A stretch of 64,000 nt of DNA from Alphaproteobacteria bacterium (lineage in GTDB: Bacteria; Pseudomonadota; Alphaproteobacteria; MPNO01): NCBI GenBank assembly GCA_963667285.1, contig OY763326.1, positions 879,068 to 943,067 of the forward strand, written 5' to 3'. The notes under the pieces were generated by a model. It was not told where the DNA came from and did not search any database. It saw nothing but the letters and a program-made list of their open reading frames with translations. The position numbers were made by a program, and so were the translations under genes. This document shows, in pieces, positions 7,580 to 44,123 of the stretch (positions are counted from its first letter, which is position 1; each line of letters begins with the position of its first letter).

Positions 7580-7641
7580 GCAGATTGCGATCGCAAGCTC
7601 CGGCAGCCGGGCGGCGACGGAGGCGCCTGGGCGCCGGGGCG

Positions 7642-8052: not shown

Positions 8053-8057
8053 CGCGC

Positions 8058-16506: not shown

Positions 16507-16900
16507 CCGGCTCACCGTCACCGAGGACACCTACGGCATTCACGACATGGAATACGGCATGTGTTCCGCCTGGGTGTACGAGAACATGGGCGACGCCTAT
16601 GACAGCCTCGACGAGGGCTTCACGATCGGAGGCCCGCTCGGCTATCCCTCCTTCGGGTGCTACGAGGTGCTGCAGAAGGCCCTGAGCGGGTATCCCATCG
16701 AACCGGAGAATATTCCCGAGACCTTCAACATATTTCAGACCCTGGCTTTCGAAATGCCCGAAGGGACGTTTCGGACCCAGGAAGGGCGCAGCAAGCCCGG
16801 CGACTTCATCGAATTCGTTGCGCGCATGGATACGCTATGCGCCGTGAGCGCCTGCCCCGCAGCCGGCAGGCCGCTGAGGGTCCAGGTCTACGAACCCTGA
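16507..16900 (+). pseudogene. 5'-truncated remnant of a DUF1989 (urea-carboxylase-associated) family gene
   Basis: About 130 C-terminal codons (TEDTYGIHDMEYGMCSAWVYEN...FVARMDTLCAVSACP...LRVQVYEP). They are about 65% identical by eye to the C-terminal two-thirds of the intact DUF1989 gene at 34751-35377. The N-terminal about 75 codons are absent, and there is no room for them after the preceding gene. Confidence 0.6.
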
Positions 16901-16988: not shown

Positions 16989-18131
16989 ATGGGCGAGACG
17001 ACCGCGTATCTTTCCCCGAACGGAGACAATTCGAGCCGGGGCGACGGGCCGGCGACCCGTCTTGTGGTGGCGACGGTGGAAGGTGTCGCGACCTTTCGGC
17101 GCGAGGGCCGGGGTGCGCCGTGGCATCTGGCCGATCGCTCGCTGTCGGAGTGCCATGTCGGATCGCTGCTCTTCGAGCCGGTCTCGGGCAAGCTGTTCGC
17201 CGGCGCCCATGCCGATGGCGGGCTGTGGGTCAGGGACGGCGAGGTCGGCGCGTGGCGCCGGCTGACCGACGGGCTCGACCGGCCGCACATATACTGCCTC
17301 GCCGCGCGCCGGATCGGCGACCGGGTGACGCTGTTCGCCGGTACCGAGCCCGCCGCGCTCTACCGCAGCGAGGATTTCGGCGAGACCTGGGGTGAGGTGG
17401 AAAGCCTGCGCGCGGTCCCCGGCACGGACAAATGGACGTTTCCGCCGCCGCCGCATCTGGCGCATGTCAAGTCGGTCGTCTTCCACCCGGCGCGGGAGCG
17501 GACATTCTATGCCCTGGTCGAGCAGGGCGCGCTGCTGCAGACCGACGACGACGGCCGCACCTGGACCGAGCTCGCCGGCTATGCCGGCGCCGGCGATATC
17601 GCCTATCACGACGTCCACCGGCTGGTGATCAGCGCGAACGACCCGCGTCTGTTCTATCTCGCCACCGGTGAGGGGCTCTACCGCAGCGGCGATGGCGGCC
17701 GGAGCTGGGAGCACCTGATGAAGCGGGCCGAGCGGATCGGCTATCCCGACTTCCTGTTCTTCGATCCGCGCGACGACGACACGCTGTTCCTGGGCGGGGC
17801 GCGCAACGATCCGGGCAAGTGGTTCGGCGATCCGATGGCCGATTCGATCATCGCGCGCAGCACCGACGGCGGCCGCACCTGGCTCGAGCTCGATCACGGC
17901 ATGCCGAGCCCGATGGCACCGGCATTCGAGGCGCTCTGCCTGCACCATTGGGACGGCGGCATGATGCTCGCCGTGGGCACCGCGACGGGGGAGGTCTATG
18001 TCAGCGAGGACGACGGCGGGTCGTGGAGCTGCATCGAGGACAACGCGGGACCGGTCTCCAAGGACCACCACCACCTCGCCTGGTACCCGAAGGCCGAGCG
18101 CGAGGCCGCGATGGCGCTGCGCCGCGCCTGA
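16989..18131 (+). CDS. BNR/Asp-box repeat protein (Ycf48-/sialidase-like beta-propeller)
   Basis: Five S-x-D-x-G-x-T/S-W Asp-box motifs (SEDFGETW, TDDDGRTW, SGDGGRSW, STDGGRTW, SEDDGGSW). Paralog of the gene at 25902-26900. Confidence 0.65.
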   Translation: MGETTAYLSPNGDNSSRGDGPATRLVVATVEGVATFRREGRGAPWHLADRSLSECHVGSLLFEPVSGKLFAGAHADGGLWVRDGEVGAWRRLTDGLDRPHIYCLAARRIGDRVTLFAGTEPAALYRSEDFGETWGEVESLRAVPGTDKWTFPPPPHLAHVKSVVFHPARERTFYALVEQGALLQTDDDGRTWTELAGYAGAGDIAYHDVHRLVISANDPRLFYLATGEGLYRSGDGGRSWEHLMKRAERIGYPDFLFFDPRDDDTLFLGGARNDPGKWFGDPMADSIIARSTDGGRTWLELDHGMPSPMAPAFEALCLHHWDGGMMLAVGTATGEVYVSEDDGGSWSCIEDNAGPVSKDHHHLAWYPKAEREAAMALRRA

Positions 18132-25901: not shown

Positions 25902-26900
25902 ATGGCCACGTCTCTATTCGTCGCGACGGGGAACGGGGTCTTCCTCGCGGAGCCGAACGGCGCCGGCCGCGAGACCCGGCCTCTGGGGCTGCAAGGCAAG
26001 GGCATGGTGCGCTGGATCCTGGCCGACCCGTCTTGCGCCGGGCGGGTGTGGGCGGCGACGGAGCGCTCGGGCGTCTGGCGGACCGATGACGGCGGTGCGA
26101 CCTGGACGGAGAAGAACGAGGGGCTGGTCTACAAGCACACCCTGTCGCTCGCCCTTCATCCGGCGACCGGCACGCTCTATGCCGGCACGGAGCCCGCCTG
26201 CATCTTCAGATCGAGCGATGCCGGGGACAGCTGGGTCGAGCTCGAGACCCTGCGGCGACTCGGGACGCGCAAGGACTGGACCTTCCCGGGGCCGCCCTAT
26301 GTCGCCCATGTGCGCGGCATCGGGCTGTCGCCATCCGACCCCGAAATCATCTTCGGCGCGGTCGAGGAGGGTTGGCTGGTGCGCTCGCGCGACGGCGGCG
26401 AGAGCTGGGTCAACATCAAGGACGGCACCGAGTTCGACTCGCACACCGTCACCGTGCTTCCGGATGGCGAAACCGTGATCTCGGCGTCGGGCAAGGGCCT
26501 GTACCGGAGCACCGACGGAGGCGAGACATTTGCCGCCGCCTATGCCGGGATCGCACACCCCTATCTGATAAACGTCGCGGTTCATCCCGGCCGGCCCGAC
26601 ATGCTGTTCACCGCCGGCGCGGAGGTGCCGCCGCCGGGCTGGCGTCGGCCGGAAGGCGCCGGGGCGGGGTTCTACCGGAGCGAGGACGGCGGGGAGAGCT
26701 GGTCCCGCCTGACCGGCGGGCTGCCGGAGCGCATCGGGCCGGCGCCGCGCTCGATCGCGATCGACCCCGCGTCGCCCGAGACCGTGTTCGTCGGGCTCAA
26801 CGACGGCGAAATCTGGGCCAGCCGGGACGGTGGGGAGGCGTTCGACCGTATCGTCGCCGGCCTGCCCCCCGTGCTGGGGATCGCACCGGTCCCCGCCTGA
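25902..26900 (+). CDS. BNR/Asp-box repeat protein (paralog of 16989-18131)
   Basis: Asp-boxes TDDGGATW, SSDAGDSW, SRDGGESW, STDGGETF, SEDGGESW, SRDGGEAF. Same domain order as its paralog. Confidence 0.65.
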   Translation: MATSLFVATGNGVFLAEPNGAGRETRPLGLQGKGMVRWILADPSCAGRVWAATERSGVWRTDDGGATWTEKNEGLVYKHTLSLALHPATGTLYAGTEPACIFRSSDAGDSWVELETLRRLGTRKDWTFPGPPYVAHVRGIGLSPSDPEIIFGAVEEGWLVRSRDGGESWVNIKDGTEFDSHTVTVLPDGETVISASGKGLYRSTDGGETFAAAYAGIAHPYLINVAVHPGRPDMLFTAGAEVPPPGWRRPEGAGAGFYRSEDGGESWSRLTGGLPERIGPAPRSIAIDPASPETVFVGLNDGEIWASRDGGEAFDRIVAGLPPVLGIAPVPA

Positions 26901-26907
26901 ACCCGAC

Positions 26908-27861
26908 ATGGGCGGAGCGGAAAGGCGGGACAGCTTCGACGGCATCGCCATCTTCGTCCGCGTGGCGCAAAGCGCCAGCTTCTCGGAAGCGGCGCGCCAT
27001 CTCGGCTTGTCGGCATCCGGTGTCAGCCGGGCGATCGCGCGGCTCGAATCGAGGCTCGGAACCCGGCTGGTCGACCGGACGACGCGGCGCCTGTCGCTGA
27101 CCGCCGAGGGCGGCGCCTATTTCGAGCGGTGCCGGCACATCCTCGCCGAACTCGAAGCCGCCGAGAACGCCCTGGCCGAGGCGCGCGGCGTGCCGCGAGG
27201 ACCTCTGCGGATCCAGGTGCCGCGCGGATTCGGCCGCACGGTGGTCGTGCCGGCGCTCGCCGGTTTCCTTTCGCGCCACCCCGAGGTGACCGTCGACGTT
27301 ACCGTCAACGACGGCGCCATCGATCCGAGCGAAGAAGGGGTGGACGCCTCCTTCATTCTGGGCGAGCCGGCGACCGGCCGCTTTGTCGCCCGCAGGATCT
27401 GCACCATCGGCTATGCCGTCTGTGCCGCGCCCGGCTACCTCGAGGCTCATGGCAGGCCGATGGGCCTCGACGATCTGGCCCGGCACCGATGTCTCAACTA
27501 CCTCCGTCCGCGTTCCGGGCGCCGACGCGACTGGACGCTGTGCAGCCACGGCAAGGAAGTCTCGGTGCCGGTCGCGTCGGTGCTCGACGCCAACGATATC
27601 CAGGCAGTTCACCAGGCGGCCCTGTCGGGTGCCGGGCTCGCCTATCTGATGGATTTCCTGATCGCGGGCGACGTTGCGGCCGGACGGCTGGAAATCGTCC
27701 TGCCGGGCCATGTCCTGCGTGGCGTACCGGTGTTCCTGTGCTATCCGCGGAACCCGCATCGCACGCCGCGCCTGACCGCCTTCGTCGACTATCTCGGCGA
27801 GACCCTGCCCGCCGGCGCGGACTGGTCGATCGACCGGCTGGTCGGCTCGACTATTGACTGA
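26908..27861 (+). CDS. LysR-family transcriptional regulator
   Basis: N-terminal wHTH FDGIAIFVRVAQSASFSEAARHLGLSASGVSRAIARLE. LysR substrate-binding domain. About 317 aa. Confidence 0.85.
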   Translation: MGGAERRDSFDGIAIFVRVAQSASFSEAARHLGLSASGVSRAIARLESRLGTRLVDRTTRRLSLTAEGGAYFERCRHILAELEAAENALAEARGVPRGPLRIQVPRGFGRTVVVPALAGFLSRHPEVTVDVTVNDGAIDPSEEGVDASFILGEPATGRFVARRICTIGYAVCAAPGYLEAHGRPMGLDDLARHRCLNYLRPRSGRRRDWTLCSHGKEVSVPVASVLDANDIQAVHQAALSGAGLAYLMDFLIAGDVAAGRLEIVLPGHVLRGVPVFLCYPRNPHRTPRLTAFVDYLGETLPAGADWSIDRLVGSTID

Positions 27862-27940
27862 GTATCAAAGCAGTTTCTCCCATTTGGACCTTTGAGGCAT
27901 CAATAGCGAGCGCTACCATCGGCCCGCATCGCATTGCCAT

Positions 27941-28759
27941 TTGCGCACGGTGAAACGGATGACCGGCGAATTCGAGCGCGAAACCGTCGACCTGCCCACC
28001 GGGCCTGTGACGTATTTCGCAGCCGGGGCGGGGCACGATGTGGTCTATCTCCACCCCGCCGCCGGGATGCGCATTTCCGACCCGCTCCGTCGCCTGGCCC
28101 GACGATTTCGCGTCTGGGCGCCGGTCGTGCCGGGTTTCGACGACACCTTGGCGCACGAAACGGTCGATACGATGCCGGCGCTCGCCGATCTGCTCGCGGC
28201 GTTCATCGCAGCCGGGCCCGGCCGCGCGGTCGATGTCGTGGGCAGCTCGCTGGGCGGCTGGCTCGGCGCCTGGCTCGCGGTTCGCCACCCGGATCTGGTG
28301 GAACATCTCGTGCTCGCGGCGCCCGCCGGATTCAGACCGGTCGACGCGCCGCCGCTCAGCTTCGATCCCGACATCATGCGCGCCCAGCTCTACGCCCATC
28401 CCGAACGGGTGCCGCCCGACGACAAGCCGCCGGAGATGCGCGAGGCCAATGCCAGGGCGGTCGCCCGATACGGGCTGGGCAACTCCCACGACGCCGGACT
28501 CCAGGCGAAGGTAGCGGCGATCGCCTGCCAGACCCTGATCCTCCACGGTACGCTCGACGTGCGGGTTCCGGCGTCGGGCGTGCAGATGCTCAAGGAGCGA
28601 ATTCCCAATTCGCAGCTGGTCTATGTCTACGACGCCGCCCACAGCCTGGAGCTCGACCAGCCCGGGCGCGTGGGCGCCCTGATCGAGGATTTCCTCGTCA
28701 GGGGCGAGGCCTTCATCGTCAACCAGGCGCTGCCCGAAGCGGTGGAGACCGTTCCATGA
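27941..28759 (+). CDS. Alpha/beta-fold hydrolase
   Basis: GSSLGGW nucleophile elbow. HGTLD and AAHSLE catalytic-triad context. 4-bp overlap with the downstream LLM gene. Confidence 0.75.
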   Translation: MRTVKRMTGEFERETVDLPTGPVTYFAAGAGHDVVYLHPAAGMRISDPLRRLARRFRVWAPVVPGFDDTLAHETVDTMPALADLLAAFIAAGPGRAVDVVGSSLGGWLGAWLAVRHPDLVEHLVLAAPAGFRPVDAPPLSFDPDIMRAQLYAHPERVPPDDKPPEMREANARAVARYGLGNSHDAGLQAKVAAIACQTLILHGTLDVRVPASGVQMLKERIPNSQLVYVYDAAHSLELDQPGRVGALIEDFLVRGEAFIVNQALPEAVETVP

Positions 28760-29907
28760 GATTCTCGCAAACCCACCACATGCCCTATACGGATATCGAC
28801 GAGGCCGGGCTGGGTTGGCCGATCTCGAACAGCCGGTTCGATTCCGGGCGCGCGATCGAAATGTTCCGCGCCTACACCCACGCCAAGGTGTATGCCGAAG
28901 AGTGCGGGTTCGACGCGATCGGCTGCAACGAGCACCACATGAGCCCGTTCGGCATGATGCCGAACCCCAACCTGATCGCCGCCGCGGTGACGGAACGCAC
29001 GTCGAGCGCCGAGATCCAGCTCAGCGGCAACATCGTGCCCCTCACCAACCCGATCCGGATCGCCGAAGAATACGCGATGATCGACGTGATGAGCGGCGGA
29101 CGGCTGATGGCGGGCTTCATGCGCGGCATCCCGCACGAATATGTCGCCTACAACGTCGCGCCGGACGAATCCTGGAGCCGCATGCGCGAAGCCGTGCAGC
29201 TGATCCTCAAGGCCTGGACCGAGCCGGAGCCGTTCGGCTGGGAAGGCGAGCATTACCGCTTCCGCGCCGTCTCGATCTGGCCCAAGCCGGTCCAGCGGCC
29301 GCACCCGCCGATCCTGATGTCGGGTGGCAGCCCGACATCGGCGCGCTTCGCCGCCGAACACCGGGCGATCATGGGCATCCTGCGCGTGCTCAATTTCGAC
29401 CAGGCGCTGCAGCTCATCGACATCTACAGGCAGAAGGCCCGCGAGGACGGGTGGGAGCCCGGCCCCGACCGGTTCATGGTCGGCGTGCCGACGGCGGTCG
29501 CCGAGACCGTCGAGGAGGCGAAGCGGGCGCTGCATGACGGCACCCAGTATTTCTTCGATGTCCTGCAAGGCGGCATAAACCGGGCCCAGCTCCTGGTGCT
29601 CCAGAAGACGCGCTTCAACGCCGACGACACCCTGGTGCGCCCGGTCGACAAGGACCAGCGGATGAAGGCGACGCCGGTCGAGCAGCGCATCGAGAACGGC
29701 CAGGTGCTCTGCGGCACGCCCGACATGGTGGTCGACCAGATCGAGCGCATGCACGCCGCGCTGAATCACGGGCACATGAATCTGATCGTCAAGGTCGGCA
29801 ATATGCCGGACGATTTCGTCCTTCGGAGCATGAAGCTGCTCGGCGACCATGTGTTCCCGGAGGTCAAGCATCTCGGCCGGGCGACCGAAACCGTCGCCGC
29901 CGAGTAG
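28756..29907 (+). CDS. Luciferase-like (LLM-class) flavin-dependent monooxygenase/oxidoreductase
   Basis: 383 aa TIM-barrel LLM pattern (AEECGFDAIGCNEHH..., LSGGRLMAGF). Translationally coupled to the upstream hydrolase. Confidence 0.8.
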   Translation: MRFSQTHHMPYTDIDEAGLGWPISNSRFDSGRAIEMFRAYTHAKVYAEECGFDAIGCNEHHMSPFGMMPNPNLIAAAVTERTSSAEIQLSGNIVPLTNPIRIAEEYAMIDVMSGGRLMAGFMRGIPHEYVAYNVAPDESWSRMREAVQLILKAWTEPEPFGWEGEHYRFRAVSIWPKPVQRPHPPILMSGGSPTSARFAAEHRAIMGILRVLNFDQALQLIDIYRQKAREDGWEPGPDRFMVGVPTAVAETVEEAKRALHDGTQYFFDVLQGGINRAQLLVLQKTRFNADDTLVRPVDKDQRMKATPVEQRIENGQVLCGTPDMVVDQIERMHAALNHGHMNLIVKVGNMPDDFVLRSMKLLGDHVFPEVKHLGRATETVAAE

Positions 29908-29936
29908 CCCGGCCCGGGGCACGCAGGAGCGAATCG

Positions 29937-30293
29937 ATGCCGAGCGTCACCGTCGTCAACCGGGGCAACCGGTCTTTCGAGGTCAGGCAGGGCCGCGCGC
30001 TGCTGACCGGCGCGCGCGAAGCCGGGCTGCCCTGGCGCTGGTATTGCGGCGGCGAGGCGCTCTGCGGAACCTGCTGCATGCTGGTGGTCGACGGCGCGCT
30101 CGACGAGCCCAACGAGATCGAGCGCTATTTCATCGAGGGCTGGGGCTACCATCCCGGCTTTCGCCTCGCCTGTCAGGCGCGTGTCGTCGAGCCGGTCGCG
30201 GTAATATCCTGCGCCGAGGAAGGCTATGACAGGGATGCGGTGCTCGCCGCCTACGACGCGGCGGTGGAGCAGAGAAAAGGGGATCGACCATGA
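29937..30293 (+). CDS. [2Fe-2S] ferredoxin
   Basis: 118 aa with a CGGEALCGTCC ... C cysteine cluster typical of 2Fe-2S ferredoxins. Overlaps the next gene by 4 bp. Confidence 0.7.
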   Translation: MPSVTVVNRGNRSFEVRQGRALLTGAREAGLPWRWYCGGEALCGTCCMLVVDGALDEPNEIERYFIEGWGYHPGFRLACQARVVEPVAVISCAEEGYDRDAVLAAYDAAVEQRKGDRP

Positions 30294-30943
30294 CGGAGAC
30301 CGACACCGCATCCGCGCTGACACCCGAATCCTTCGCCCTGATGAAGGACCTGGTCGGCAAGGAAGCGGCGCTGCTGACGATGGACCTGATGAGCGAGGAA
30401 TCGAAGCTCCGCTACCGCAGCTTCTACCCCTGCGGCGACATGCTGATCGGGCTGCGCTATGCCGAGCCGCGACCCGACGGCAAGGGGTTCAAGCCCGGCC
30501 GGTCGCTAAAGATCATGAACGGCAGGATCGTCTCCGAGCCGCGCCGGGACGTCCAGTTCACCCCGCCGCTGGTGCCGCATCATGCCGAGCATGTCTACGG
30601 CTTCTGGCACATCAACGACCAGCAGGAGATGGTCATGAACCTGAAGCTCGGCGACGACCGCCGGCTGACGGTGCTGATCGAGGGCTATCCCGAGCGCGGG
30701 CGGATCGACCGCTTCGCCTGGTTCTGCCTCGAATGCCTGAACCCGCTCTACATGGTCGAGGTGGAGACCGCCAGGGTCGGGCTGGGCGGCTACTACGCCG
30801 TCCAGGAGGACGGGTTCGCGGCGTTCAACGGCGACGAAAAGCTGCGGACATGCGCGTCATGCGGCGCCGTCCACCCGGTCGCCTATTCGATCTTTCCGTG
30901 GAACGATACGCCGGAAGAACGCGCGGCCCGCGAGCTCTGGTAG
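30290..30943 (+). CDS. Cupin protein with C-terminal Cys4 rubredoxin-like ribbon, 3-hydroxyanthranilate-3,4-dioxygenase (HAAO)-like
   Basis: WFCLECLNPLY...(about 35 aa)...RTCASCGAVHPV: two CxxC pairs spaced as in bacterial HAAO (W-Y-C-x2-C...R-C-x2-C-G-x-H). Cupin core upstream. One of three paralogs in the window. Confidence 0.5.
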   Translation: MTETDTASALTPESFALMKDLVGKEAALLTMDLMSEESKLRYRSFYPCGDMLIGLRYAEPRPDGKGFKPGRSLKIMNGRIVSEPRRDVQFTPPLVPHHAEHVYGFWHINDQQEMVMNLKLGDDRRLTVLIEGYPERGRIDRFAWFCLECLNPLYMVEVETARVGLGGYYAVQEDGFAAFNGDEKLRTCASCGAVHPVAYSIFPWNDTPEERAARELW

Positions 30944-30983
30944 GGTCGCCCGGCGGCCCGAGAACAAGGACAGGGAGAAGGAC

Positions 30984-32009
30984 ATGAGACTGCTGAAGAC
31001 CCGGCATCCGGCGGCCGTGCTCATCGCGGCGGGCGCGATTGCCCTCGCCGGCGGGACGCAGACCGCCCAGGCCCAGCTGTCGCTCGCCAAGGTCAAGGTC
31101 GCGATGCCGTTGACCGTCCTGGTCCAGCGCGCGGCGCTCGAAGGCGCGATCGCGTCCGGCGCGTTCAAGCGCGAGGGTCTCGCGGTCGAGGTCATCTCAT
31201 TCCGCTCCTGGACGGAGCCGGTGCAGTCGCTCGCCGCGGACGCGGCGCAGTTCGCGCTCGGCGGCGGAAGCTTCATCCGTGCCTCGCTCGGCGGCAAGGC
31301 GCCGGTGCGCGCCATCGCGCTGGTCTCCAGCCGCTACCCCTACGCCTTCTGGGTCAAGAAATCGAGCGGCATCAAGTCGTTCGAGGACCTCCGGGGCAAG
31401 ACGATCCAGACCGTGCGGGCGGGCGAGACGCTCGACAACGTCTGGCAGCAGATCCTGGCGACCGCCGGCCTCGGGATCACCGACGTCAAGCGGTTCGAAT
31501 CCTTCAACGGCTTCGGCTCGCTGATGAGCGGCAACGCCGATATCGCCAATATCTCCAGCAACTGGATCGGAAAGTCCCGAAAGGCCGGGCTGGTTCTCCT
31601 GCTGGACTACAACGACTGGCGCAAGGAGCAGGGGCTGCCGACGAACGAGGCCCAGAATCTCGGCTGGGGCACGTCGCTGAAGATGCTCAAGCAGCACCCG
31701 GATACCGTGCGCGCCTTCCTCCGCGCGCTCGCCAGGGCGACCGTCCGGCTGCGCGAGGACCGCGACTTCGCCGTCTCGGTGCTCACCGCCAAGCCCTATT
31801 CCCAGACCGAGGAAACGGCGAAGGAGGTGTGGGAGATGCACCGCAACGCGTGGATGCTCCGCCTCGACCCGTCCAAGGGCGACTATTCGTTCGACGCCGC
31901 GATGTCGGAAGTCGCGCTGCGGCGGCCGAAAGGGTCGATCGACGTGCGTCAGGCGAGCGCGCTGGAGCCGATCGCCGAGGTGTTGAAGGAGCTGAAGATC
32001 TCCTTCTGA
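30984..32009 (+). CDS. ABC transporter substrate-binding protein, NitT/TauT (SsuA/NMT1-like) family
   Basis: Signal peptide MRLLKTRHPAAVLIAAGAIALAGGTQTAQA. NMT1/SsuA-type periplasmic-binding fold by composition and length (341 aa). Confidence 0.8.
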   Translation: MRLLKTRHPAAVLIAAGAIALAGGTQTAQAQLSLAKVKVAMPLTVLVQRAALEGAIASGAFKREGLAVEVISFRSWTEPVQSLAADAAQFALGGGSFIRASLGGKAPVRAIALVSSRYPYAFWVKKSSGIKSFEDLRGKTIQTVRAGETLDNVWQQILATAGLGITDVKRFESFNGFGSLMSGNADIANISSNWIGKSRKAGLVLLLDYNDWRKEQGLPTNEAQNLGWGTSLKMLKQHPDTVRAFLRALARATVRLREDRDFAVSVLTAKPYSQTEETAKEVWEMHRNAWMLRLDPSKGDYSFDAAMSEVALRRPKGSIDVRQASALEPIAEVLKELKISF

Positions 32010-32029
32010 CCGGCGGCGGTGCCGGGAGC

Positions 32030-32794
32030 ATGGAGGAGCCGAGCCTCGAGGTGATCGGGGTCACCAAGTCGTTCCCGACCGCACAGGGCCGGCTCCAGGT
32101 GCTCGATGGGATCGACATGACCCAGGCCCGCGGCGAGGTGGTCTCCATCGTCGGCGCGAGCGGATCGGGCAAGACCACATTCCTCAGGCTCGTCGCCGGG
32201 CTCGATACGCCTGACAGCGGCGCGCTCAGGCTCGACGGGCGGGAGATCGACGGACCGACTCCCGAACGGTCGCTGATCTTCCAGCAGTTCGGCCTGATGC
32301 CGTGGCTCAGCGTGCTGGAGAACGTCCTGTTCGGGCTGGCGACGAGCGGCCTCTCGAAGACCGAGCAGCGCGACCGCGCCAACGACGTCATCGGGCGCGT
32401 GGGACTGCAGGGGTTCGAGGACTTCCACCCCAAGGCGCTGTCCGGCGGCATGCAGCAGAGGGTCGGGATCGCGCGGGCGCTCGCGGTCGAACCGCGGCTC
32501 CTGCTGTGCGACGAGCCCTTCGCATCGGTCGACGCGATGACCCGCCAGACCATGCAGACCGACCTTCTCGACATCGTGACCCAGCACAGGGCGACCGTGC
32601 TGCTGGTGACCCACGACATCGAGGAGGCGCTGTTCCTCGGCGACCGGGTGCTGGTGTTCTCGTCGCGCCCGGCTCGGGTGATCGAGGAGATCGACGTGGC
32701 GATCGCCAAGCCGCGCGAGCATTCGGTCAGAATGTCGGCCGCGTTCCAGGAACAAAGGGCGATGCTTTGGGAACTCCTCCAGGCAGCCGCCTAG
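32030..32794 (+). CDS. ABC transporter ATP-binding protein (NitT/TauT family)
   Basis: Walker A GASGSGKTT. Signature LSGGMQQRVGIARAL. Walker B LLLCDEPFASVD. The start coordinate is good to plus or minus 1-2 nt. Confidence 0.85.
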   Translation: MEEPSLEVIGVTKSFPTAQGRLQVLDGIDMTQARGEVVSIVGASGSGKTTFLRLVAGLDTPDSGALRLDGREIDGPTPERSLIFQQFGLMPWLSVLENVLFGLATSGLSKTEQRDRANDVIGRVGLQGFEDFHPKALSGGMQQRVGIARALAVEPRLLLCDEPFASVDAMTRQTMQTDLLDIVTQHRATVLLVTHDIEEALFLGDRVLVFSSRPARVIEEIDVAIAKPREHSVRMSAAFQEQRAMLWELLQAAA

Positions 32795-32814
32795 AGAACG
32801 GCGAACCCGCCCGG

Positions 32815-33570
32815 TTGCGCGCGCTTGCGGCGCGGCCGGGCACGCTCTCGCTGCTCATCCTCCTGGCCATCCTCGCCGGCTGGGAGGCCGGCGGGAGGAC
32901 CGGCGTGCTCGACACGTTTTTCTTCAGCACCCCCGGTGCGATCGCGGTCAAGGCCTGGGCGATGCTGATCGACGGCAACCTCCTGTTCCATAGCCTGCGC
33001 ACGGGCTACGCCTATGTCGCCGGGGTGGTCGCGGCGATCGCGGTGGGGGCGGTGGCGGGGCTCGCCATGGGCTGGTGGCGGCGCTTCGGCGATGTGGTCG
33101 ATCCCTACGTCGTCTTCTTCTCGGCGATGCCGCGCATCGCCCTGTTCCCGGTCATCATCCTGATTTTCGGCATCGGCGACCTGTCGCGGACGATCATCGT
33201 CTTCCTCGGCGTGGTCTTTCCGGTCCTGTTCAACGCCTATATCGGCGCCAAGCAGACGCCGCGGCTCCTGATCGATGTGGGACGGGTTTTCGGCTACTCG
33301 CACAACCGGCTGTTTACCGCCGTGGTCCTGCCGGCGGCGCTGCCCTATCTGATCGCGGGGTTCCGCATCGGGGTGACGCTCGGGATCATCATGATCGTGG
33401 TCGCCGAGTTCCTCGCCGCGTCGGCCGGGCTCGGGCAGCAGATCGCGGTCACCGCGCAGAATTACCAGATCGCCGAGATGTGGGCCTGGGTGCTCTACAC
33501 CTCGTTCTACGCCCTGCTGATCGTCCGCGGCATGGACCGCTTCGAGCGCTGGGCGATGCGCTGGGCCTGA
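32815..33570 (+). CDS. ABC transporter permease (NitT/TauT family)
   Basis: Six-TM BPD-type permease. The start was guessed at a TTG just after the ATPase stop. The upstream part of the track ORF is an artefact. Confidence 0.7.
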   Translation: MRALAARPGTLSLLILLAILAGWEAGGRTGVLDTFFFSTPGAIAVKAWAMLIDGNLLFHSLRTGYAYVAGVVAAIAVGAVAGLAMGWWRRFGDVVDPYVVFFSAMPRIALFPVIILIFGIGDLSRTIIVFLGVVFPVLFNAYIGAKQTPRLLIDVGRVFGYSHNRLFTAVVLPAALPYLIAGFRIGVTLGIIMIVVAEFLAASAGLGQQIAVTAQNYQIAEMWAWVLYTSFYALLIVRGMDRFERWAMRWA

Positions 33571-33581
33571 GGAGGGTCGTC

Positions 33582-34730
33582 ATGAGCGAACAAATCGTCT
33601 CCATCGACGTGCGTCCGGCGGAGTTCGGGGACCGGAGCCCGCGCCAGGGGGTGCAGGATTTGGTGAGACCGCGTATCTACGGCCGGCTCGCCGAGGAAGG
33701 CTGCGGCAAGGACGTCGCCCATCTCGTCCTCCACCCCGCCGTCAACTTCATGCACCACTACCTGATCGAGCCGATGCAGGCGCGCGGGCGGGCGATCCTC
33801 GGGCTCAACACGCGCTACGCGAACAACGACTCGACCCTGCTGGTCGAGCGCGTCATCCAGGATATCGGCGCGGGCGTAAAGTTCCTGCGCGACCGGGGCT
33901 ACCGGCGGATCGTCTATATCGGCAACTCGGGCGGCGGTTCGGTCGGCACGCTCTACCAGGCGCAGGCGGAACGGCTCACGATCGACACCACGCCGGACGG
34001 GCTTGCCATCGACCTCTACCCGGAGGACCTGCCGCCGGTCGACGCGATCGTGCTCGCGTCCTGCCATATCGGACGGGGCCGGCATTTCGGCATGTCGCTC
34101 GATCCTTCGGTGCTCGACGAGCGCGAGCTCACCCGTACCGATCCCGAGCTCGACATGTTCAACCCCGCCAACGGCCCGCCTTACGACCGCGCTTGGCTCG
34201 AGCGCTACGCCGAGGCGCAATCGGCGCGGCACCGGCGGATCACCGGCTGGGTCCTCGGGCGGCTGCGCGAGATCGACGCGATGCCGCAAGAGGCCGGGCT
34301 CGCCGACGAGCCGTTCCTGATCCACCGCACCTACGCCCGGCCGCAGATCCTCGATCCGACGATCGACCCCAACGACAGGCCCGTCGCGTCCTCGATATGG
34401 GGCGGGGCCAGGGCGACCAACTACGCCGCCACGGTTCTCGGGCGGTTCACCACGCTCCGGTCCTATCTCAGCCAGTGGAGCCTGCTCGGCCGCGCGGCGG
34501 ACGGCCCGGCGCGTCTCGCCGAAACCTCGGTGCCGGCGATCAACATCCGGTTCTCCGCCGACGAGGGCACCTATCCGAGCCTGTCGCAGGAATATTCCGA
34601 CGCCGCGGACGGACGCTGCGAGGATTACACCCTCGTCGGCGCGCGGCACTTCCCCTACAAGCAGGAGAACGGCCCGGCGCTGATTTCCGAGCTCGCCGAC
34701 GTGATCGCCGAATGGGGCGACCAGGGCTGA
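33582..34730 (+). CDS. Alpha/beta-hydrolase-fold protein with G-N-S-G-G nucleophile elbow (unknown specificity)
   Basis: IVYIGNSGGGSVGTLYQ (Ser nucleophile) and a C-terminal GARHFPY His. 382 aa. About 60% identical by eye to the minus-strand gene at 35385-36527. Confidence 0.6.
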   Translation: MSEQIVSIDVRPAEFGDRSPRQGVQDLVRPRIYGRLAEEGCGKDVAHLVLHPAVNFMHHYLIEPMQARGRAILGLNTRYANNDSTLLVERVIQDIGAGVKFLRDRGYRRIVYIGNSGGGSVGTLYQAQAERLTIDTTPDGLAIDLYPEDLPPVDAIVLASCHIGRGRHFGMSLDPSVLDERELTRTDPELDMFNPANGPPYDRAWLERYAEAQSARHRRITGWVLGRLREIDAMPQEAGLADEPFLIHRTYARPQILDPTIDPNDRPVASSIWGGARATNYAATVLGRFTTLRSYLSQWSLLGRAADGPARLAETSVPAINIRFSADEGTYPSLSQEYSDAADGRCEDYTLVGARHFPYKQENGPALISELADVIAEWGDQG

Positions 34731-34750
34731 CCTGCGCCGGAGGCGAACCA

Positions 34751-35377
34751 ATGAACATTCTGGAAGACGTGACACTCCCCGGCCGGCAAGGCGGCGCCTG
34801 GATCGTGCGGAAGGGACAGCATGTTCGGGTCATCGACGTCGAAGGCGGCCCGATCGGCGATTTCGTCTGCTTCAACGCCGACGACCTCACCGAGCGGTTC
34901 AGCCAGACGCGCACCCGGACGAACCACGGCAAGTTTCTCCTGTCCGAGGGAGACCATCTCTACTCCCGCGCAAACAACCCGATGCTGACGATCGTGGAGG
35001 ACAGCTACGGCATCCACGACCTGCAATACGGAATGTGCTCGGCCTGGGTCTACGAGAATTTCAGGAACGACGAGTATCGCGGCTTCGCGGCGGACGCGTT
35101 GACACTGGGCGGACCGCTCGGAATGCCGACTTTCGGCTGCTACGAAGTGCTGCAGCGGGCGCTCGCGGACTGGCCCATCGAGCCGCACGACATTCCGGAC
35201 CCGATCAACCTGTTCCAGACCGTCGACTACGATGCGGACAGGGGAACCTTCACCCTTGTCGACGGGCGCAGCAAGCCGGGCGATTACATCGACTTCGTCG
35301 CCCGCATGGACACGCTGTGCGCCCTCAGCGCCTGCCCGTCGATGGGGCGGGCGCTCCGCGTCCAGATCCACGAATAG
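34751..35377 (+). CDS. DUF1989 family protein (urea-carboxylase-associated protein family)
   Basis: 208 aa. Conserved GIHDLQYGMCSAWVYEN and FVARMDTLCALSACP blocks of DUF1989. Intact copy of the remnant at 16507-16900. Confidence 0.7.
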   Translation: MNILEDVTLPGRQGGAWIVRKGQHVRVIDVEGGPIGDFVCFNADDLTERFSQTRTRTNHGKFLLSEGDHLYSRANNPMLTIVEDSYGIHDLQYGMCSAWVYENFRNDEYRGFAADALTLGGPLGMPTFGCYEVLQRALADWPIEPHDIPDPINLFQTVDYDADRGTFTLVDGRSKPGDYIDFVARMDTLCALSACPSMGRALRVQIHE

Positions 35378-35384
35378 GAACGGA

Positions 35385-36527
35385 TCAGGCGGACCACCCG
35401 GCAAGCAAGTCGGCGAGCTCGGCGATCAGCTCGTCCCCGTCCGGCTGGGTGAAGGGGAAGTGCATCGCGCCCTTGAGTAGATAGGTCTCGCAGCGCGATC
35501 CCACGGCCTCGGTGTACCGGCCGGTCTCCGAAGGAAAACAGCCCTCGTCGGCCGAGTACTCGACATTCAGCACCGGCACCGAGGTTTCCGCCAGGCGCGC
35601 CGGGCCATCGGCGACGCTGAGCGGGCTCCACTGGCTGAGATAGGACCGGAGCGTGGTGAAGCGGCCGAACACGCCGGCGGAGTAGTTCACCGCCCGCGCC
35701 TTGCCGAAGATCGTCGCATCGCCCGCCGGCCGGTCGTTGGGATCGATCGAGCGGTCGAGCGTGGCCGGCTTCGCGCAAGTACGGTGGATGACGAAGCCTT
35801 GGTCGTCGGCACGGGGATGGGCCTCCAGCTGACGCAGCCGCGCCAGTACCCACCCGGTGATCCGGTCGTGCCGCGCGGCCTGTGCCGCCTCGTAGCGCGC
35901 GAGCCAGTCGCGATCGTAGGGCGGCCCGTTGTCGGGATCGTACATGTCGAGTGCCGGGTCGGCCGAAAGCGCATCCGCCTCGTCGATCACCGACGGATCG
36001 AGCGCCGAGCGGAACTGCTGGTGGCGCCCCGGATGGGCGCTCAGCAGGACCACCGCGTCCGCCGGTGGGAGGTCTTCGGGTACGATGTCGAAGGGCCGGC
36101 CGTCGGGCGTCGTCTCGATGGTGAGGGTCTCGGCCTGCGCCTGATAGAGCGACATCACCGGACCGCCGCCCGAGTTGCCCACCAGAACGACGCGCCGGTA
36201 ACCGCGCTCCCGCAGCCAGCGTACGCCTCCGCCGACATCCTGGATCAGCCGCTCCATCAGCAGCGCGCTGTCGTTGTGGAGATGGCGGCTGGTGAGGGTG
36301 AGCACGGCGCGGCCGCGCGCGGCCAGCGGCGCCTGGGCGTAGTGGTGCAAGAAGCTCACCGCCGGGTGCATGAAGAGGAACGCGACATTCTTGCCGCAGC
36401 CCGCATCGGCGATCTTGCCGAGGATTCGGGGGCGCACCCGGTCGGCGATCCCCTGCCCGACGGGCGGGGTATTGCTCGGCCGCAGGTCTATCGAGACGAG
36501 CTCGCCGCGCTCGGCGGGGTGGGTCAT
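35385..36527 (-). CDS. Alpha/beta-hydrolase-fold protein with G-N-S-G-G elbow (paralog of 33582-34730)
   Basis: VVLVGNSGGGPVMSLYQ and KGAMHFPF. Collinear similarity to its paralog over the full length. Start ATG overlaps the stop of the upstream HAAO-like gene (ATGA). Confidence 0.6.
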   Translation of the reverse strand: MTHPAERGELVSIDLRPSNTPPVGQGIADRVRPRILGKIADAGCGKNVAFLFMHPAVSFLHHYAQAPLAARGRAVLTLTSRHLHNDSALLMERLIQDVGGGVRWLRERGYRRVVLVGNSGGGPVMSLYQAQAETLTIETTPDGRPFDIVPEDLPPADAVVLLSAHPGRHQQFRSALDPSVIDEADALSADPALDMYDPDNGPPYDRDWLARYEAAQAARHDRITGWVLARLRQLEAHPRADDQGFVIHRTCAKPATLDRSIDPNDRPAGDATIFGKARAVNYSAGVFGRFTTLRSYLSQWSPLSVADGPARLAETSVPVLNVEYSADEGCFPSETGRYTEAVGSRCETYLLKGAMHFPFTQPDGDELIAELADLLAGWSA

Positions 36528-37087
36528 GCGCCCCTGGCCATGTCCTCGCGCAGCTCGGCCGCCACCGCCCCCCATCCATAGGGAGCGAGATCGATCTCGT
36601 CATGCGTCCGGCCGCAGGACGGGCAGGTCCGGCGCGCCGCGTCGGCGTTGAACGCGCGGCAGGCGCGGAGATAGCCCTCCTGCGGGATCTCCTCCGCCGT
36701 GTCCCAGACATCGCGGGCGATCTCCGCGCCGCAGCCCTCGCAATACCAGGCGACCGCCTCGAGGCCGGGGTGCTCGGCCTTGTAGCGAAGCTGGACGCAT
36801 TCGCCGTCGGGGACGATGCGATGCGGCGTGCCGGAGGGCACGTAGACGAAATCGCCCGGAACCACCGGGTGGAAACGGACCGGGCCGTCGGGGAATTCGA
36901 CCCGGCCCTCGCCCGACATGTTGACCAGCACCGTGTCGTGCTCGCAGATCAGGAAGAAGGGCTGGGGCGTGTCGTTGCGGCTGAGGCAGATCTGCGGGTC
37001 CACGCCCGCCGGCAGCATGGGGTACTCGTCGTAAGGGCCGCGCTTCGCGGCCTCGTCGAAGGCGGCGAAGCGCTGCTTGCGTGCCAT
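36524..37087 (-). CDS. HAAO-like cupin dioxygenase with C-terminal Cys4 ribbon
   Basis: VAWYCEGCGAEIARDVWD...ARRTCPSCGRTHDE closely mirrors the bacterial 3-hydroxyanthranilate 3,4-dioxygenase C-terminus (FEWYCDACG...RRCPHCG.VHP). Cupin block PFFLICEHDTV...VPSGTPHRIVP. 187 aa, matching HAAO size. Confidence 0.55.
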   Translation of the reverse strand: MARKQRFAAFDEAAKRGPYDEYPMLPAGVDPQICLSRNDTPQPFFLICEHDTVLVNMSGEGRVEFPDGPVRFHPVVPGDFVYVPSGTPHRIVPDGECVQLRYKAEHPGLEAVAWYCEGCGAEIARDVWDTAEEIPQEGYLRACRAFNADAARRTCPSCGRTHDEIDLAPYGWGAVAAELREDMARGA

Positions 37088-37102
37088 TGCGGGCTCCTCC
37101 GC

Positions 37103-37828
37103 CTAGCCGGCCGCGGCCGCCGTCTCGCTCAGGCTCTGATGCGCCTCGCGGATGATGTCGGTCATGTCGCGGTAGCGGTCCCAGCCCCAGCGCCCGAGCG
37201 GGAACGGCGGGTTGACGTTGCCGCATTTGGGGCAGGTCCGGTTGCGCTCATCGGCGTTGTAGTTGAGCGCCGCCTGAGCGCTGCCATAGATCGTGTGCAG
37301 GTGGCCGACGGGACCGACCTCGTCCTTCTGCTTTCCCCGTCTGGGCGGCGTCGAATCGAATTCTTCCCGGTAGATTTCGGTCGAGCAGGCGGCGCAGGTG
37401 AAGGCAACGGCCTCTCTTTGCGGGACGCCGGTGGACTGGCGCTGGGTGACCGAGACCAGCGAGAAGCTTTCGGGACTGTCCGGTTCGCTCAACAGGTTTC
37501 CGACGCCGTGGCTGCGCGCGCTGGCGCGCACCAGCCCGGCCTTGCCGCGCCCCGTGGTGGCGCCCGAACCGAAGACGATCGCCACCTCGTCGACCGTGTT
37601 CTCATGCTCGAAATAGCCGTAATCGCCGCCCGACTGGCCGTAGAACAGCGCGATGGTGGGCACCATCGCGCCTTCATCCACATAGGGGAACATCGGCGTC
37701 AGCGTGCTGACCAGGGTGCGCGCGTAGTCGTAGACATTGCACTTCAGCGGCTGCTTGTCCGTCGCCGGCGGCGGCATGGAGACCGTCTTTCCCGCCCTGT
37801 CGTTCACATCCCCCTCCTCACCTTCCAT
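37103..37828 (-). CDS. HAAO-like cupin with C-terminal Cys4 ribbon (more divergent paralog)
   Basis: VAFTCAACSTEIYREEFD...RNRTCPKCGNVNPP. Putative metal ligands in FEHENTVDE (H...E spaced by 6, as in HAAO). The start is uncertain; an internal Met lies at about 37777. Confidence 0.45.
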   Translation of the reverse strand: MEGEEGDVNDRAGKTVSMPPPATDKQPLKCNVYDYARTLVSTLTPMFPYVDEGAMVPTIALFYGQSGGDYGYFEHENTVDEVAIVFGSGATTGRGKAGLVRASARSHGVGNLLSEPDSPESFSLVSVTQRQSTGVPQREAVAFTCAACSTEIYREEFDSTPPRRGKQKDEVGPVGHLHTIYGSAQAALNYNADERNRTCPKCGNVNPPFPLGRWGWDRYRDMTDIIREAHQSLSETAAAAG

Positions 37829-42821: not shown

Positions 42822-44123
42822 TTATCCCATCGTATCGGGCAGGAACAGAACGATGGATGGGAACGCGACCAGTAGCAGAATTCGCAGGACGTCGGTGACG
42901 ATGAATGGCGCCACACCGCGGTAGATGGTCGACAGCCTGACGTCCCTGGCGACACCGCGGATCACGAACACGTTGAGACCGAATGGCGGCGTGATCAAGC
43001 CCAGCTCCACCGTCATGACCACCACCACGCCGAACCAGATGGGGTCGAAGCCGAGATCGACGATCGCCGGGAATATGATCGGCACGGTCAGGATGATCAT
43101 TGCCAGCGAATCCATCAGGCAGCCGAGTATCAGGTAGAACAACAACAACAGCAGCAGGATGCCGTAAGGTCCGATCGGCAGCGCAAGCAGCAGGTCGGTC
43201 AGTTTCTGCGGCGTCTGGGTAATGGCAAGAAAGACGCCGAACAGCAGGGCCCCGATCAGGATGGTGAATACCGCCCCGGTGGTGCGGACGCTCTCGATCA
43301 GACAGTCGAGCGTTTGCCGCAGGGTCAGGCTGCGCCGAATGACGGCGATCAGGAAAGCGCCGGCCGCGCCCATGCCCGCGGCCTCGGTCGGCGTGAACAC
43401 GCCGCCGTAAATCCCGCCGATCACGAAGAAGAACACCAGCGCGACCGCCCACACATTGCGCAGCGACGCGATCCGTTCGCGCCACGACGCCCGGACCCCG
43501 GCCGGCACCGCATCGGGGTTGAACCAGGCAATGATCTGCACTGTGGTCATGTACATCGCGACCGCCAGCAGGCCCGGAATGAAGGCGGCGATGAACAGGC
43601 GACCGATATCCTGTTGGGTGATGATGCCGTACACCGCCAGCACCACCGACGGCGGAATCAGAATGCCGAGCGTGCCGCCCGCGGCGATAACGCCGGTCGA
43701 AATGCTGCTGCTATAGCCGTAGTCGCGCATTTCCGGCAGGGCGACCTTGGCCATCGTCGCTGAGGTCGCGACCGAGGAGCCGCAGATCGCCGCGAAACCG
43801 GAGCAGGCCGCGAGCGTCGCCAGCGACAAGCCGCCGCGGCGGTGGCCGAGCCAGGCGTTGCCGGCGCGGAACAGCTCGCGGCTCATACCGGACGCGCTGG
43901 CGAACGCGCCCATGAGGATGAACAGCGGGATCAGCCCGAACGCGAAGTCGGTGGCGTTGCGGATCGGCGACAGCGCCACCAGGCGCAGCGCCGGGTCGAT
44001 GCCGCTCAGGCTGGCGAAGCCGCCGATGCCGACGATCGCCATGGCGATACCGACGGGAACGCGCAGCAACATCAGCACGAGCAGGACGACGAAGCCGAGC
44101 CCTGCGATGAGGTCGTTGTCCAC
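42822..44123 (-). CDS. dctM: TRAP transporter large permease (DctM family)
   Basis: DctM motifs (GGIYGGVFTPTEAAGMG, TPPFGLNVFV). Start inferred at a GTG near 44123. The upstream part of the track ORF is an artefact. Confidence 0.85.
   Translation of the reverse strand: MDNDLIAGLGFVVLLVLMLLRVPVGIAMAIVGIGGFASLSGIDPALRLVALSPIRNATDFAFGLIPLFILMGAFASASGMSRELFRAGNAWLGHRRGGLSLATLAACSGFAAICGSSVATSATMAKVALPEMRDYGYSSSISTGVIAAGGTLGILIPPSVVLAVYGIITQQDIGRLFIAAFIPGLLAVAMYMTTVQIIAWFNPDAVPAGVRASWRERIASLRNVWAVALVFFFVIGGIYGGVFTPTEAAGMGAAGAFLIAVIRRSLTLRQTLDCLIESVRTTGAVFTILIGALLFGVFLAITQTPQKLTDLLLALPIGPYGILLLLLLFYLILGCLMDSLAMIILTVPIIFPAIVDLGFDPIWFGVVVVMTVELGLITPPFGLNVFVIRGVARDVRLSTIYRGVAPFIVTDVLRILLLVAFPSIVLFLPDTMG

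Follow-up and report, generated by a model that had tools for sequence, protein, structure and literature searches.

Three cupin genes with a C-terminal four-cysteine site

A 64,000-nucleotide stretch of alphaproteobacterial DNA (contig OY763326.1, assembly GCA_963667285.1; the window, whose coordinates are used throughout) carries within 8 kb three open reading frames, here termed A, B and C, for proteins that resemble bacterial 3-hydroxyanthranilate 3,4-dioxygenase (HAAO). A is directly preceded by a ferredoxin gene, and B and C lie side by side on the opposite strand:

29937-30293, plus strand: [2Fe-2S] ferredoxin (Fer2; Pfam Fer2, E 7e-12), ATGA overlap with A, putative electron donor to A
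30290-30943, plus strand: A, 217 amino acids, single-gene protein of a third family with a predicted HAAO-type cupin fold and a Cys4 site
36524-37087, minus strand: B, 187 amino acids, putative small subunit and partner of C, HAAO-like cupin with a Cys4 site but without the three iron ligands
37103-37828, minus strand: C, 241 amino acids, putative large and catalytic subunit with a predicted HAAO-type cupin fold and a C-terminal Cys4 site

The true start of C is probably the GTG codon at 37807, which would give a protein of 234 amino acids, because homologues are about 234 amino acids long and a GGAGG motif lies just upstream. No further copy of A, B or C was found within the window.

An earlier reading of the letters by a model (the original prediction) had described these three genes as ending alike in W/F-x-C-x2-C ... 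R-x-C-x2-C-G, and this can be read directly from the sequence at the coordinates listed. The motif is W144-F-C146-LE-C149 ... R186-T-C188-AS-C191-G in A, W114-Y-C116-EG-C119 ... R153-T-C155-PS-C158-G in B and F143-T-C145-AA-C148 ... R197-T-C199-PK-C202-G in C, that is, an aromatic-x-C-x2-C at the C-terminal end, followed 39-53 residues on by R-T-C-x2-C-G. The four cysteines are kept in 99 of 99 homologues of C, in 87-90 of 91 homologues of B and in 13 of 13 homologues of A. BLASTP across the Cys4 region gave E = 9e-6 (A/B), 4e-6 (A/C) and 8e-11 (B/C), and profile-profile comparison matched the A family to the C family at 98.5% and the B family to the C family at 98%. Judged by these scores, the C-terminal resemblance is due to homology and not to chance. 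Beyond the C-terminal region no similarity was detected when A, B and C were compared with each other by BLASTP. The genes had been called paralogous, which is correct at the depth of a superfamily, as shown by the C-terminal homology, but does not extend to the rest of the proteins, which BLASTP cannot align.

A recent duplication was ruled out, as identity is about 30% over the C-terminal 60-90 residues only and each protein has its own orthologues across phyla; by the same measure, A, B and C are three ancient, uncharacterised families and not recent duplicates. Orthologues of B fall into more than 300 clusters and those of A number 86, while for C a word search gave 39, and a search of 1.84 billion cluster representatives gave 211 representatives at E<=1e-3 and 87 at E<=1e-30. 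Nearly all orthologues of the three proteins are labelled 'hypothetical'. The closest relatives of the window C come from Defluviicoccus metagenome-assembled genomes (MAGs; 92-93%), and further hosts of C include Alpha- and Gammaproteobacteria, Burkholderiales, Myxococcota, Chloroflexota, Binatia, Eremiobacterota/Vulcanimicrobiota and, within the Actinomycetota, Acidimicrobiales, Pseudofrankia and Yinghuangia, among others.

Relation to HAAO

HAAO from Cupriavidus metallidurans (PDB 1yfu; the sequence used is identical to 1yfu_A) served as reference. HAAO was the only significant NCBIfam or PDB relative of A, B and C, which bears out their description as HAAO-like cupin and Cys4 proteins. The NCBIfam model for HAAO, NF009763, scored A, B and C at 36.9, 33.2 and 17.7 bits against a cut-off of 220, and TIGR03037 at 22.2, 30.4 and 14.3 bits against a cut-off of 146. 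No match of the Pfam family 3-HAO to any of the three was obtained at E<=10. B gave a Pfam Cupin_2 match (E 4.6e-5) below the gathering score and reached HAAO at E ~2e-3 when searched against PDB with phmmer, while a sequence search of PDB with the C-family profile returned nothing significant, and the same profile never reached true HAAO among the 1.84 billion cluster representatives. Alignment to 1yfu with hhalign led to 97.3% for A, 97.7% for B (E 1.3e-12) and 94.3% for C at an identity of only 13-22%, and both CxxC pairs of all three proteins align with HAAO Cys125/128/162/165, so that the expected Cys4 spacing is indeed present. The kinship to HAAO becomes visible solely by profile-profile and fold comparison. 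For the latter, AlphaFold2 models of A and C were made from family alignments. Both were beta-rich and confident, with a predicted local distance difference test score (pLDDT) of 83 for either protein and a predicted template modelling score (pTM) of 0.80 for C. When these models were compared to PDB with Foldseek, the top 22 matches of C (E 4e-7, probability 1.0) and the top 18 matches of A (E 1e-4) were HAAO. The predicted HAAO-type fold of A and C is therefore a sound assignment, and B was assigned to the cupins from the weak Cupin_2 match together with its hhalign result.

The iron ligands of 1yfu, which we take to be His51, Glu57 and His95, are matched three out of three in C, as the motif-1 pair without the motif-2 His in A, and zero out of three in B. 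Similarly, the substrate and catalytic residues, presumably Arg47, Arg99 and Glu110 with E110 as the acid-base residue, are found together in none of the proteins. C shows the cupin motifs G71-x3-H75-x-N77-x3-E81-x5-G87 and H107-x3-N111. Its H75-x5-E81 aligns with H51-x5-E57 of HAAO, H107 is the sole invariant His of the motif-2 strand, and the positions of R47, R99 and E110 are taken by G71, the variable residue 111 and an invariant Q129. In B, motif 2 reads G78-x5-P84-x-G86-x2-H89, with a gap or Gly at the position of H95, Leu at that of H51 and a variable residue at that of E57; H50, the only nearby His, is variable as well (Lys in 41 and His in 29 of 91 homologues). P88 and R90 of B, both invariant, align with HAAO P97 and R99, and R101 sits at the position of E110. 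A has cupin motif 1 only, with H107, N109 and E113 kept, and E131 aligns with E110; a segment of about 28 residues that bears the motif-2 His in C is missing, and no equivalent of R47 or R99 could be found. The original prediction regarded the middle copy, B, as closest to HAAO. This is true for the sequence score but not for the active site, as B lacks all three iron ligands, and C, which was listed as a more divergent flanking copy, keeps the invariant ligands that B has lost. As the scores are far below the cut-offs and the substrate residues are not kept together, none of A, B and C is, on these grounds, HAAO.

C and B as putative subunits of one enzyme

A census with the C profile recovered 94 C genes in 78 genome loci. 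B is located immediately downstream on the same strand in 80 of them and immediately upstream in three, and six are single-ORF fusions of B and C; of the remaining genes, two are cut by the contig end and three have room for B but no detectable B. B is adjacent or fused in 89 of the 92 C genes with enough flanking sequence, across about ten phyla-level lineages. In one of the fusions (P0263, 421 amino acids), residues 1-184 correspond to a full-length B (56% identity, E 9e-73) and residues 193-419 to a full-length C (38% identity, E 3e-48), and about eight further fused cluster representatives of 405-568 amino acids carry the C domain in the C-terminal half. Some genomes hold two to four C-B pairs. 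In the window, the stop codon of C is followed by a 15-nt gap with GGAGG and the start of B, and the TGA stop of B overlaps the start (ATG-ACC-CAC) of the next gene, X396, as ATGA at 36524-36527; to judge from this spacing, C, B and X396 are co-translated.

An alignment of 22 homologues revealed H75, N77, E81, H107, Q129, C145, C148, C199 and C202 of C as invariant, and these residues are kept in 99 of 99 distinct sequences. The invariant set of B consists of C48, D51, R90, R101, K103 and E110. Across phyla, identity is 45-90% for B versus 35-93% for C, with typical values to the window proteins of 50-60% versus 37-45%. Because of the conserved gene pair and the natural fusions, C and B appear to be the large and the small subunit of one obligate heteromeric enzyme, and not two enzymes. 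From the census of key residues, with an invariant triad in C and a B that lacks the triad and is nevertheless the more conserved protein, C would be the metal and catalytic subunit and B an indispensable, non-canonical partner.

In L004 (positions 4855-8564), and also in L005 and L006, a tandem array of four C paralogues that share 42-49% identity with the window C is followed by a single B, which suggests alternative catalytic subunits sharing one B partner.

A and its ferredoxin

Among 32 loci of the A family, taken from genomes and metagenomes, 28 have Fer2 upstream of A, on the same strand and within about 1 kb, and in nine of these 28 loci both genes overlap by 4 nt. Of the four remaining loci, one (L105) also has a Fer2 ORF that was outside the count, and in the other three a Rieske oxygenase gene lies upstream, with a Rieske-type ferredoxin close by. 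Because several Fer2-A loci (L010, L011, L110) show no Rieske oxygenase within the contig, A is the most plausible client of the ferredoxin. In most A-family loci an NMT1 or NMT1_3 gene lies downstream of A, and a luciferase-like flavin monooxygenase (LLM) precedes Fer2-A in L095-L099 and L013-L017.

A ferredoxin gene in front of a dioxygenase-type gene is known from XylT of the TOL plasmid pWW0, a small [2Fe-2S] ferredoxin that reactivates the catechol 2,3-dioxygenase XylE by repairing its oxidised iron. The window ferredoxin as a homologue of XylT was ruled out, since BLASTP detected no similarity between the two (E 37) and their cysteine spacing differs, with C-x5-C-x2-C-x32-C in the window protein and C-x4-C-x2-C-x31-C in XylT. 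A tblastn search with the window ferredoxin against 72,556 plasmids also gave no XylT- or NahT-type match at E<=1e-5.

A distant branch of the A family comprises pairs of a large subunit of about 215 amino acids, which keeps the H/N/E motif, and a small subunit of about 192 amino acids, which has lost it (L092, 6001-7557; L093, 2464-4024; L116-L153). These pairs are typically followed by a small Rieske-type ferredoxin, an NMT1-like gene and M24 creatinase-like genes. Among 46 loci of this branch, many of them on short contigs, both subunits were present in 27 and the Rieske-type ferredoxin in 17. The pairing of a catalytic with a degenerate subunit would thus have arisen or persisted twice in the superfamily, once as C-B and once as the A-like pairs.

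Electron-transfer genes beside C-B in other genomes

No redox partner was considered in the original prediction, and in addition to the ferredoxin coupled to A by ATGA, such partners are also encoded next to C-B in other genomes. In Pseudomonas guariconensis (L057, 7395-11190) an operon consists of genes for flavodoxin, an FAD reductase (FdR), a dienelactone hydrolase (DLH), C and B, with a divergent gene for a cytoplasmic NMT1_3-like protein alongside (6209-7210). Flavodoxin and/or FdR occur near C-B in nine of 78 loci, with both in seven, and these loci are from unrelated hosts (Burkholderiales, Sphingomonas, Novosphingobium, Hyphomonadaceae, a gammaproteobacterium, Vulcanimicrobiota and others). 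On plasmid pGal_C110 of Phaeobacter gallaeciensis (L157, 7146-11618), genes for an FAD-dependent oxidoreductase, SCP2, C, B, IclR, flavodoxin, TAXI and DLH are found together. Plasmid pANTQ-1 of Sphingobium sp. AntQ-1 (L158, 7725-11164) carries SsuA-like, C, B and PDR/VanB oxidoreductase genes with 4-nt spacing and no Rieske oxygenase nearby; besides Sphingobium, no PDR/VanB partner was found among 156 loci. RefSeq labels C and B as 'hypothetical protein' in these cultivable strains. The C-B pairs bear the locus tags GAL_RS20425/20430 in P. gallaeciensis DSM 26640 and sphantq_RS22755/22750 in strain AntQ-1, where the tag of the PDR reductase is RS22745. With four types of electron donor beside one protein superfamily, the arrangement resembles multicomponent oxygenases and not the known repair of extradiol dioxygenases by a ferredoxin.

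Gene neighbourhood

The three genes lie in a block that also encodes an importer, a monooxygenase and hydrolases:

27110-37817, both strands: conserved 10.7-kb block with A, B and C, collinear with Defluviicoccus MAG contigs
27941-28759, plus strand: alpha/beta hydrolase (Pfam Abhydrolase_1), upstream in the operon of A
28762-29907, plus strand: LLM (Pfam Bac_luciferase), upstream in the operon of A
30984-32009, plus strand: SsuA/NMT1-like periplasmic binding protein (Pfam NMT1, NCBIfam SsuA_fam) of a NitT/TauT-type ATP-binding cassette (ABC) importer
about 32027-32794, plus strand: ATPase of the NitT/TauT-type ABC importer
about 32800-33570, plus strand: permease of the NitT/TauT-type ABC importer
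33573-34730, plus strand: X385, paralogue of X396 without a Pfam or NCBIfam family
34772-35377, plus strand: DUF1989 protein, end of the operon of A, convergent with X396-B-C
35385-36527, minus strand: X396, alpha/beta-hydrolase-like, ATGA-coupled to B

The block consists of two convergent operons, with alpha/beta hydrolase, LLM, Fdx (the ferredoxin gene), A, SsuA-like protein, ATPase, permease, X385 and DUF1989 on the plus strand and C-B-X396 on the minus strand. When three Defluviicoccus contigs (L030, L013, L012) were compared to the window by blastn, 87-88% identity was observed over 10.7 kb, from 37807/37817 down to 27110, and synteny with these closest contigs stops exactly at the start of C (37807-37817). 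Linkage of A to C-B recurs in L014-L019, L094 and L099, and in L099 all genes are co-directional (LLM-Fer2-A-NMT1-...-X385-C-B). As A and C-B occur together both in the conserved block and in these other loci, the three proteins probably serve one pathway for one imported compound. X385 and X396, each of about 380 amino acids, are 60% identical to each other, and neither matched a Pfam or NCBIfam family. Both bear a faint likeness to dienelactone hydrolase around a GNSGGG elbow, with a weak match of X396 to 2o2g (E 0.15), and relatives of X396 adjoin C-B in 13 of 78 loci; by this evidence X385 and X396 look like an unannotated alpha/beta-hydrolase family tied to HAAO-like genes.

The commonest neighbour of C-B (34 of 78 loci) encodes a cytoplasmic protein of the NMT1_3/TAXI fold without signal peptide and with the conserved N-terminal motif GDWGxANLHRxCGW (e.g. 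L055, 8998-9990, and the P. guariconensis gene mentioned above), which may either form a third component or handle the substrate; no such partner was found within the window. Other recurrent neighbours are parts of ABC transporters, LLM (20 of 78 loci), FAH-family hydrolases, IclR, DctP and class II aldolases. The neighbourhoods of C-B are catabolic, yet not diagnostic of a substrate. In a Binataceae MAG (L001, 3544-8558) an NMT1_3-C-B trio directly follows genes for EgtB-like (FGE-sulfatase/DinB) and EgtD-like (Methyltransf_33) proteins of ergothioneine synthesis and for a zf-UBP protein, and a MetE-like gene is located near the trio, likewise in L093; a link of the L001 trio to thiol-histidine or methyl-group metabolism is possible.

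Upstream of C, at 37.9-42.8 kb, the window contains genes for a Rieske oxygenase, SnoaL and short-chain dehydrogenase/reductase (SDR) proteins, a different and non-conserved neighbourhood. A pathway order of Rieske dioxygenase alpha/beta, SDR, C-B and hydrolase on the minus strand (35-43 kb) was considered and dropped, as synteny stops at the start of C, and SDR and Rieske oxygenase neighbours of C-B are not conserved across loci. About 10 kb upstream of the block genes a second DUF1989 copy (16510-16894) is 62% identical to the C-terminal part of the protein at 34772-35377 and shows 71-74% nucleotide identity to the matching stretch of the Defluviicoccus contigs; beside it, a second BNR/Ycf48-like gene (17052-18056) encodes a protein 31% identical to that at 25902-26900. 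Both copies hint at an older partial duplication of the region. Four paralogues of the large permease of tripartite ATP-independent periplasmic (TRAP) transporters (4985-6088, 10731-11867, 42825-44012 and 56114-57307), several Rieske oxygenases and two LLM monooxygenases make the window a dense catabolic and uptake region.

Proposed function

From the fold, the ligand patterns, the gene pairs and fusions and the partner genes, A, B and C very probably represent three new HAAO-fold families, none of them HAAO, with C-B as a heteromer in which C is the metal subunit, A linked to a ferredoxin, and all three in one catabolic unit. Beyond this, our leading reading, with a probability of roughly 45%, is that A and C-B are electron-donor-dependent non-heme-iron oxygenases, whose invariant Cys4 centre would relay electrons to the cupin iron. 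C would hold a mononuclear iron at His75-x5-Glu81 ... His107, matching His51/Glu57/His95 of HAAO, and B would probably act as dimer partner, contribute to the substrate pocket and bring in a second Cys4 centre. Electrons would be donated to A by the ferredoxin, to C-B of other genomes by flavodoxin and FAD reductase or by a PDR/VanB reductase, and to the A-like two-subunit cousins by a Rieske-type ferredoxin. Much as the Rieske cluster does in Rieske oxygenases, the Cys4 iron site would take up the electrons and pass them on to the cupin iron. Since their block also encodes an ABC importer, hydrolases and a flavin monooxygenase, A and C-B would most likely convert consecutive intermediates derived from a single small organic compound that is imported.

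Several points weigh against such a relay. HAAO itself needs no external electrons, and its Cys4 iron is about 24 Å away from the catalytic iron. The metal of the Cys4 site may be Fe or Zn, A has no obvious third iron ligand, and an electron-transfer gene is located near only about 10% of C-B loci and not at all next to C-B in the window. In pWW0, xylT overlaps xylE by 4 nt, as does the window ferredoxin gene with A, and the hydrolase, FAH-family and IclR neighbours would fit a classical ring-cleavage pathway equally well. No characterised member of the families was found in the literature searched, and the multi-omics study of strain AntQ-1 (PMC9836352) does not mention them. The Cys4 iron of HAAO has also been proposed to be an iron reservoir, according to a citation in PMC10143591 (Liu et al., 2015, JBC).

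A wider version of the oxygenase reading, which is possible but doubtful, would unite A, C-B and the A-like pairs in a new class of 'rubredoxin-cupin oxygenases' with a built-in Cys4 iron centre. This centre would be fed by interchangeable donors (2Fe-2S ferredoxin, Rieske ferredoxin, flavodoxin/FdR or PDR reductase) and would pass the electrons on to a 2-His-1-Glu cupin iron, possibly across a subunit interface, as a convergent counterpart of Rieske oxygenases.

The main alternative, which we consider rather unlikely, is that the proteins are self-sufficient ring-cleaving dioxygenases of the extradiol type, with C-B and A each using O2 alone to cleave an aromatic or heteroaromatic ring that is hydroxylated or aminated. 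X396 or X385 would then process the ring-fission product, ferredoxin or flavodoxin would re-reduce Fe(III) as XylT does, and the Cys4 site would be a reservoir or structural. HAAO as the only structural relative, the 2-His-1-Glu triad of C, the recurrence of hydrolase (X396, DLH), FAH, IclR and class II aldolase genes near C-B, and the LLM next to A and in the 20 loci next to C-B, a possible maker of the diol or aminophenol, all speak for this alternative, as does the xylT-xylE overlap, which is exactly that of Fdx-A. However, the window ferredoxin is not related to XylT, and complete chains from NAD(P)H to flavodoxin within an operon, PDR/VanB directly after C-B and Rieske-type ferredoxins after the A-like pairs are the signature of multicomponent oxygenases and not that of a repair system. 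Moreover, the acid-base residue E110 of HAAO is an invariant Gln in C, and the Cys4 site is retained in every one of the 99 C sequences, although it is dispensable in HAAO, as animal HAAO lacks it. Neofunctionalised ring-cleavage enzymes had been one of two initial suggestions for the locus; the electron-transfer partners argue against a simple self-sufficient ring-cleavage dioxygenase.

The other suggestion, non-catalytic derivatives, fits B with its lack of iron ligands but not C, which keeps the triad. As a general explanation, a non-enzymatic role of the proteins as metal chaperones, iron stores, sensors or regulators, or as electron carriers for neighbouring flavin or Rieske oxygenases, is improbable. 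It would account for B without a canonical metal triad, for the distant small A-like subunits without H and E, for the cytoplasmic solute-binding-fold proteins that accompany the genes and for the Rieske oxygenases that adjoin A in some loci, but not for the triad and second-shell residues of C, which are perfect in 99 of 99 sequences. In addition, the operons are catabolic, with hydrolases and transporters and not with DNA-binding domains, and in many A loci and the Sphingobium C-B-PDR cluster there is no further oxygenase for an electron carrier to serve. Genuine HAAO isozymes for NAD synthesis or for the catabolism of tryptophan or 2-nitrobenzoate are effectively refuted. Some automatic JGI annotations do call B homologues '3-hydroxyanthranilate 3,4-dioxygenase', and HAAO is the best NCBIfam match for all three proteins. 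This is outweighed by scores of 17.7-36.9 bits where NF009763 demands 220, by the missing 3-HAO match, by the failure of the C-family profile to reach HAAO in either search, and by a residue pattern in which C has the ligands but G71 and Gln, B has R99 only, and A has E110 but no H95. Furthermore, genes for ACMSD, AMSDH, kynureninase or other kynurenine-pathway enzymes were seen neither among the window neighbours nor among the recurrent neighbour families.

To our knowledge, no enzyme other than HAAO with a cupin and Cys4 architecture has been characterised so far, and what the Cys4 iron does in HAAO is still debated. This architecture has radiated into at least three further unstudied families across many bacterial phyla, with a recurring design of a catalytic and a degenerate subunit that is repeatedly linked to electron donors, and with cultivable hosts in P. 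guariconensis, P. gallaeciensis and Sphingobium sp. AntQ-1. If the electron relay from Cys4 to the cupin iron is true, a new type of multicomponent oxygenase would have been found, in which the function of a rubredoxin-like site is directly testable; if the wider class exists, the rubredoxin-like site of bacterial HAAO would be an evolutionary remnant and would gain a functional rationale. Ring cleavage with O2 alone would instead mean a new two-subunit family of ring-cleaving dioxygenases, by which 'missing ring-cleavage' steps would be filled in the catabolic clusters of bacteria that live in soil, in the sea or with sponges, and automatic 'HAAO' annotations would be corrected.

Comparison with known systems

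Bacterial HAAO/NbaC shares with the window proteins the monocupin barrel and the C-terminal CxxC...CxxC rubredoxin-like site with the same spacing. C keeps H-x5-E...H, B the equivalents of P97 and R99, and A that of E110, but ligands and substrate residues are never found together in one copy, as they are in HAAO. Bacterial HAAO is a homodimer, whereas C-B would be a heteromer with one degenerate subunit, and the genes for A and C-B are accompanied by those of electron donors, not by those of the kynurenine or nitrobenzoate pathways. Animal HAAO (human 2qnk/5tk5) is a bicupin, in which a single chain holds a catalytic cupin at the N-terminus and one free of metal at the C-terminus. It resembles C-B in that a catalytic and a degenerate cupin form the functional unit, and the B-C fusions are formally such bicupins; however, C and B both retain the Cys4 site, the degenerate half is N-terminal in the fusions, and the halves are usually encoded by separate genes.

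The XylT-XylE system is similar with respect to gene order, with a ferredoxin of about 112-118 amino acids encoded immediately upstream of, and overlapping by 4 nt with, a gene of the iron dioxygenase type. The ferredoxins, in contrast, have no sequence similarity, XylE has a VOC fold and A is a cupin, and for flavodoxin/FdR, PDR/VanB or Rieske-ferredoxin partners we know of no XylT precedent. Rieske and VanAB-type systems combine, as proposed here, a mononuclear His/His/carboxylate iron with a second centre of the iron-sulfur type; in some of them a large subunit is catalytic and a small one is not, and interchangeable donors (ferredoxin, Rieske ferredoxin, PDR reductase) are encoded next door. 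The likeness would be a functional analogy only, as no Rieske domain match was found in A, B or C, a mononuclear Cys4 site would serve as second centre, and the catalytic domain is a cupin instead of the Bet v1-like fold of Rieske oxygenases. In the alkane hydroxylase system, electrons pass from an FAD-dependent rubredoxin reductase to the Cys4 iron centre of rubredoxin and on to the non-heme-iron oxygenase AlkB. Its reductase belongs to the same family as the FdR encoded near C-B, but in the proteins described here the oxygenase subunits themselves contain the rubredoxin-like centre and would have a mononuclear, soluble site where AlkB has a di-iron site in the membrane.

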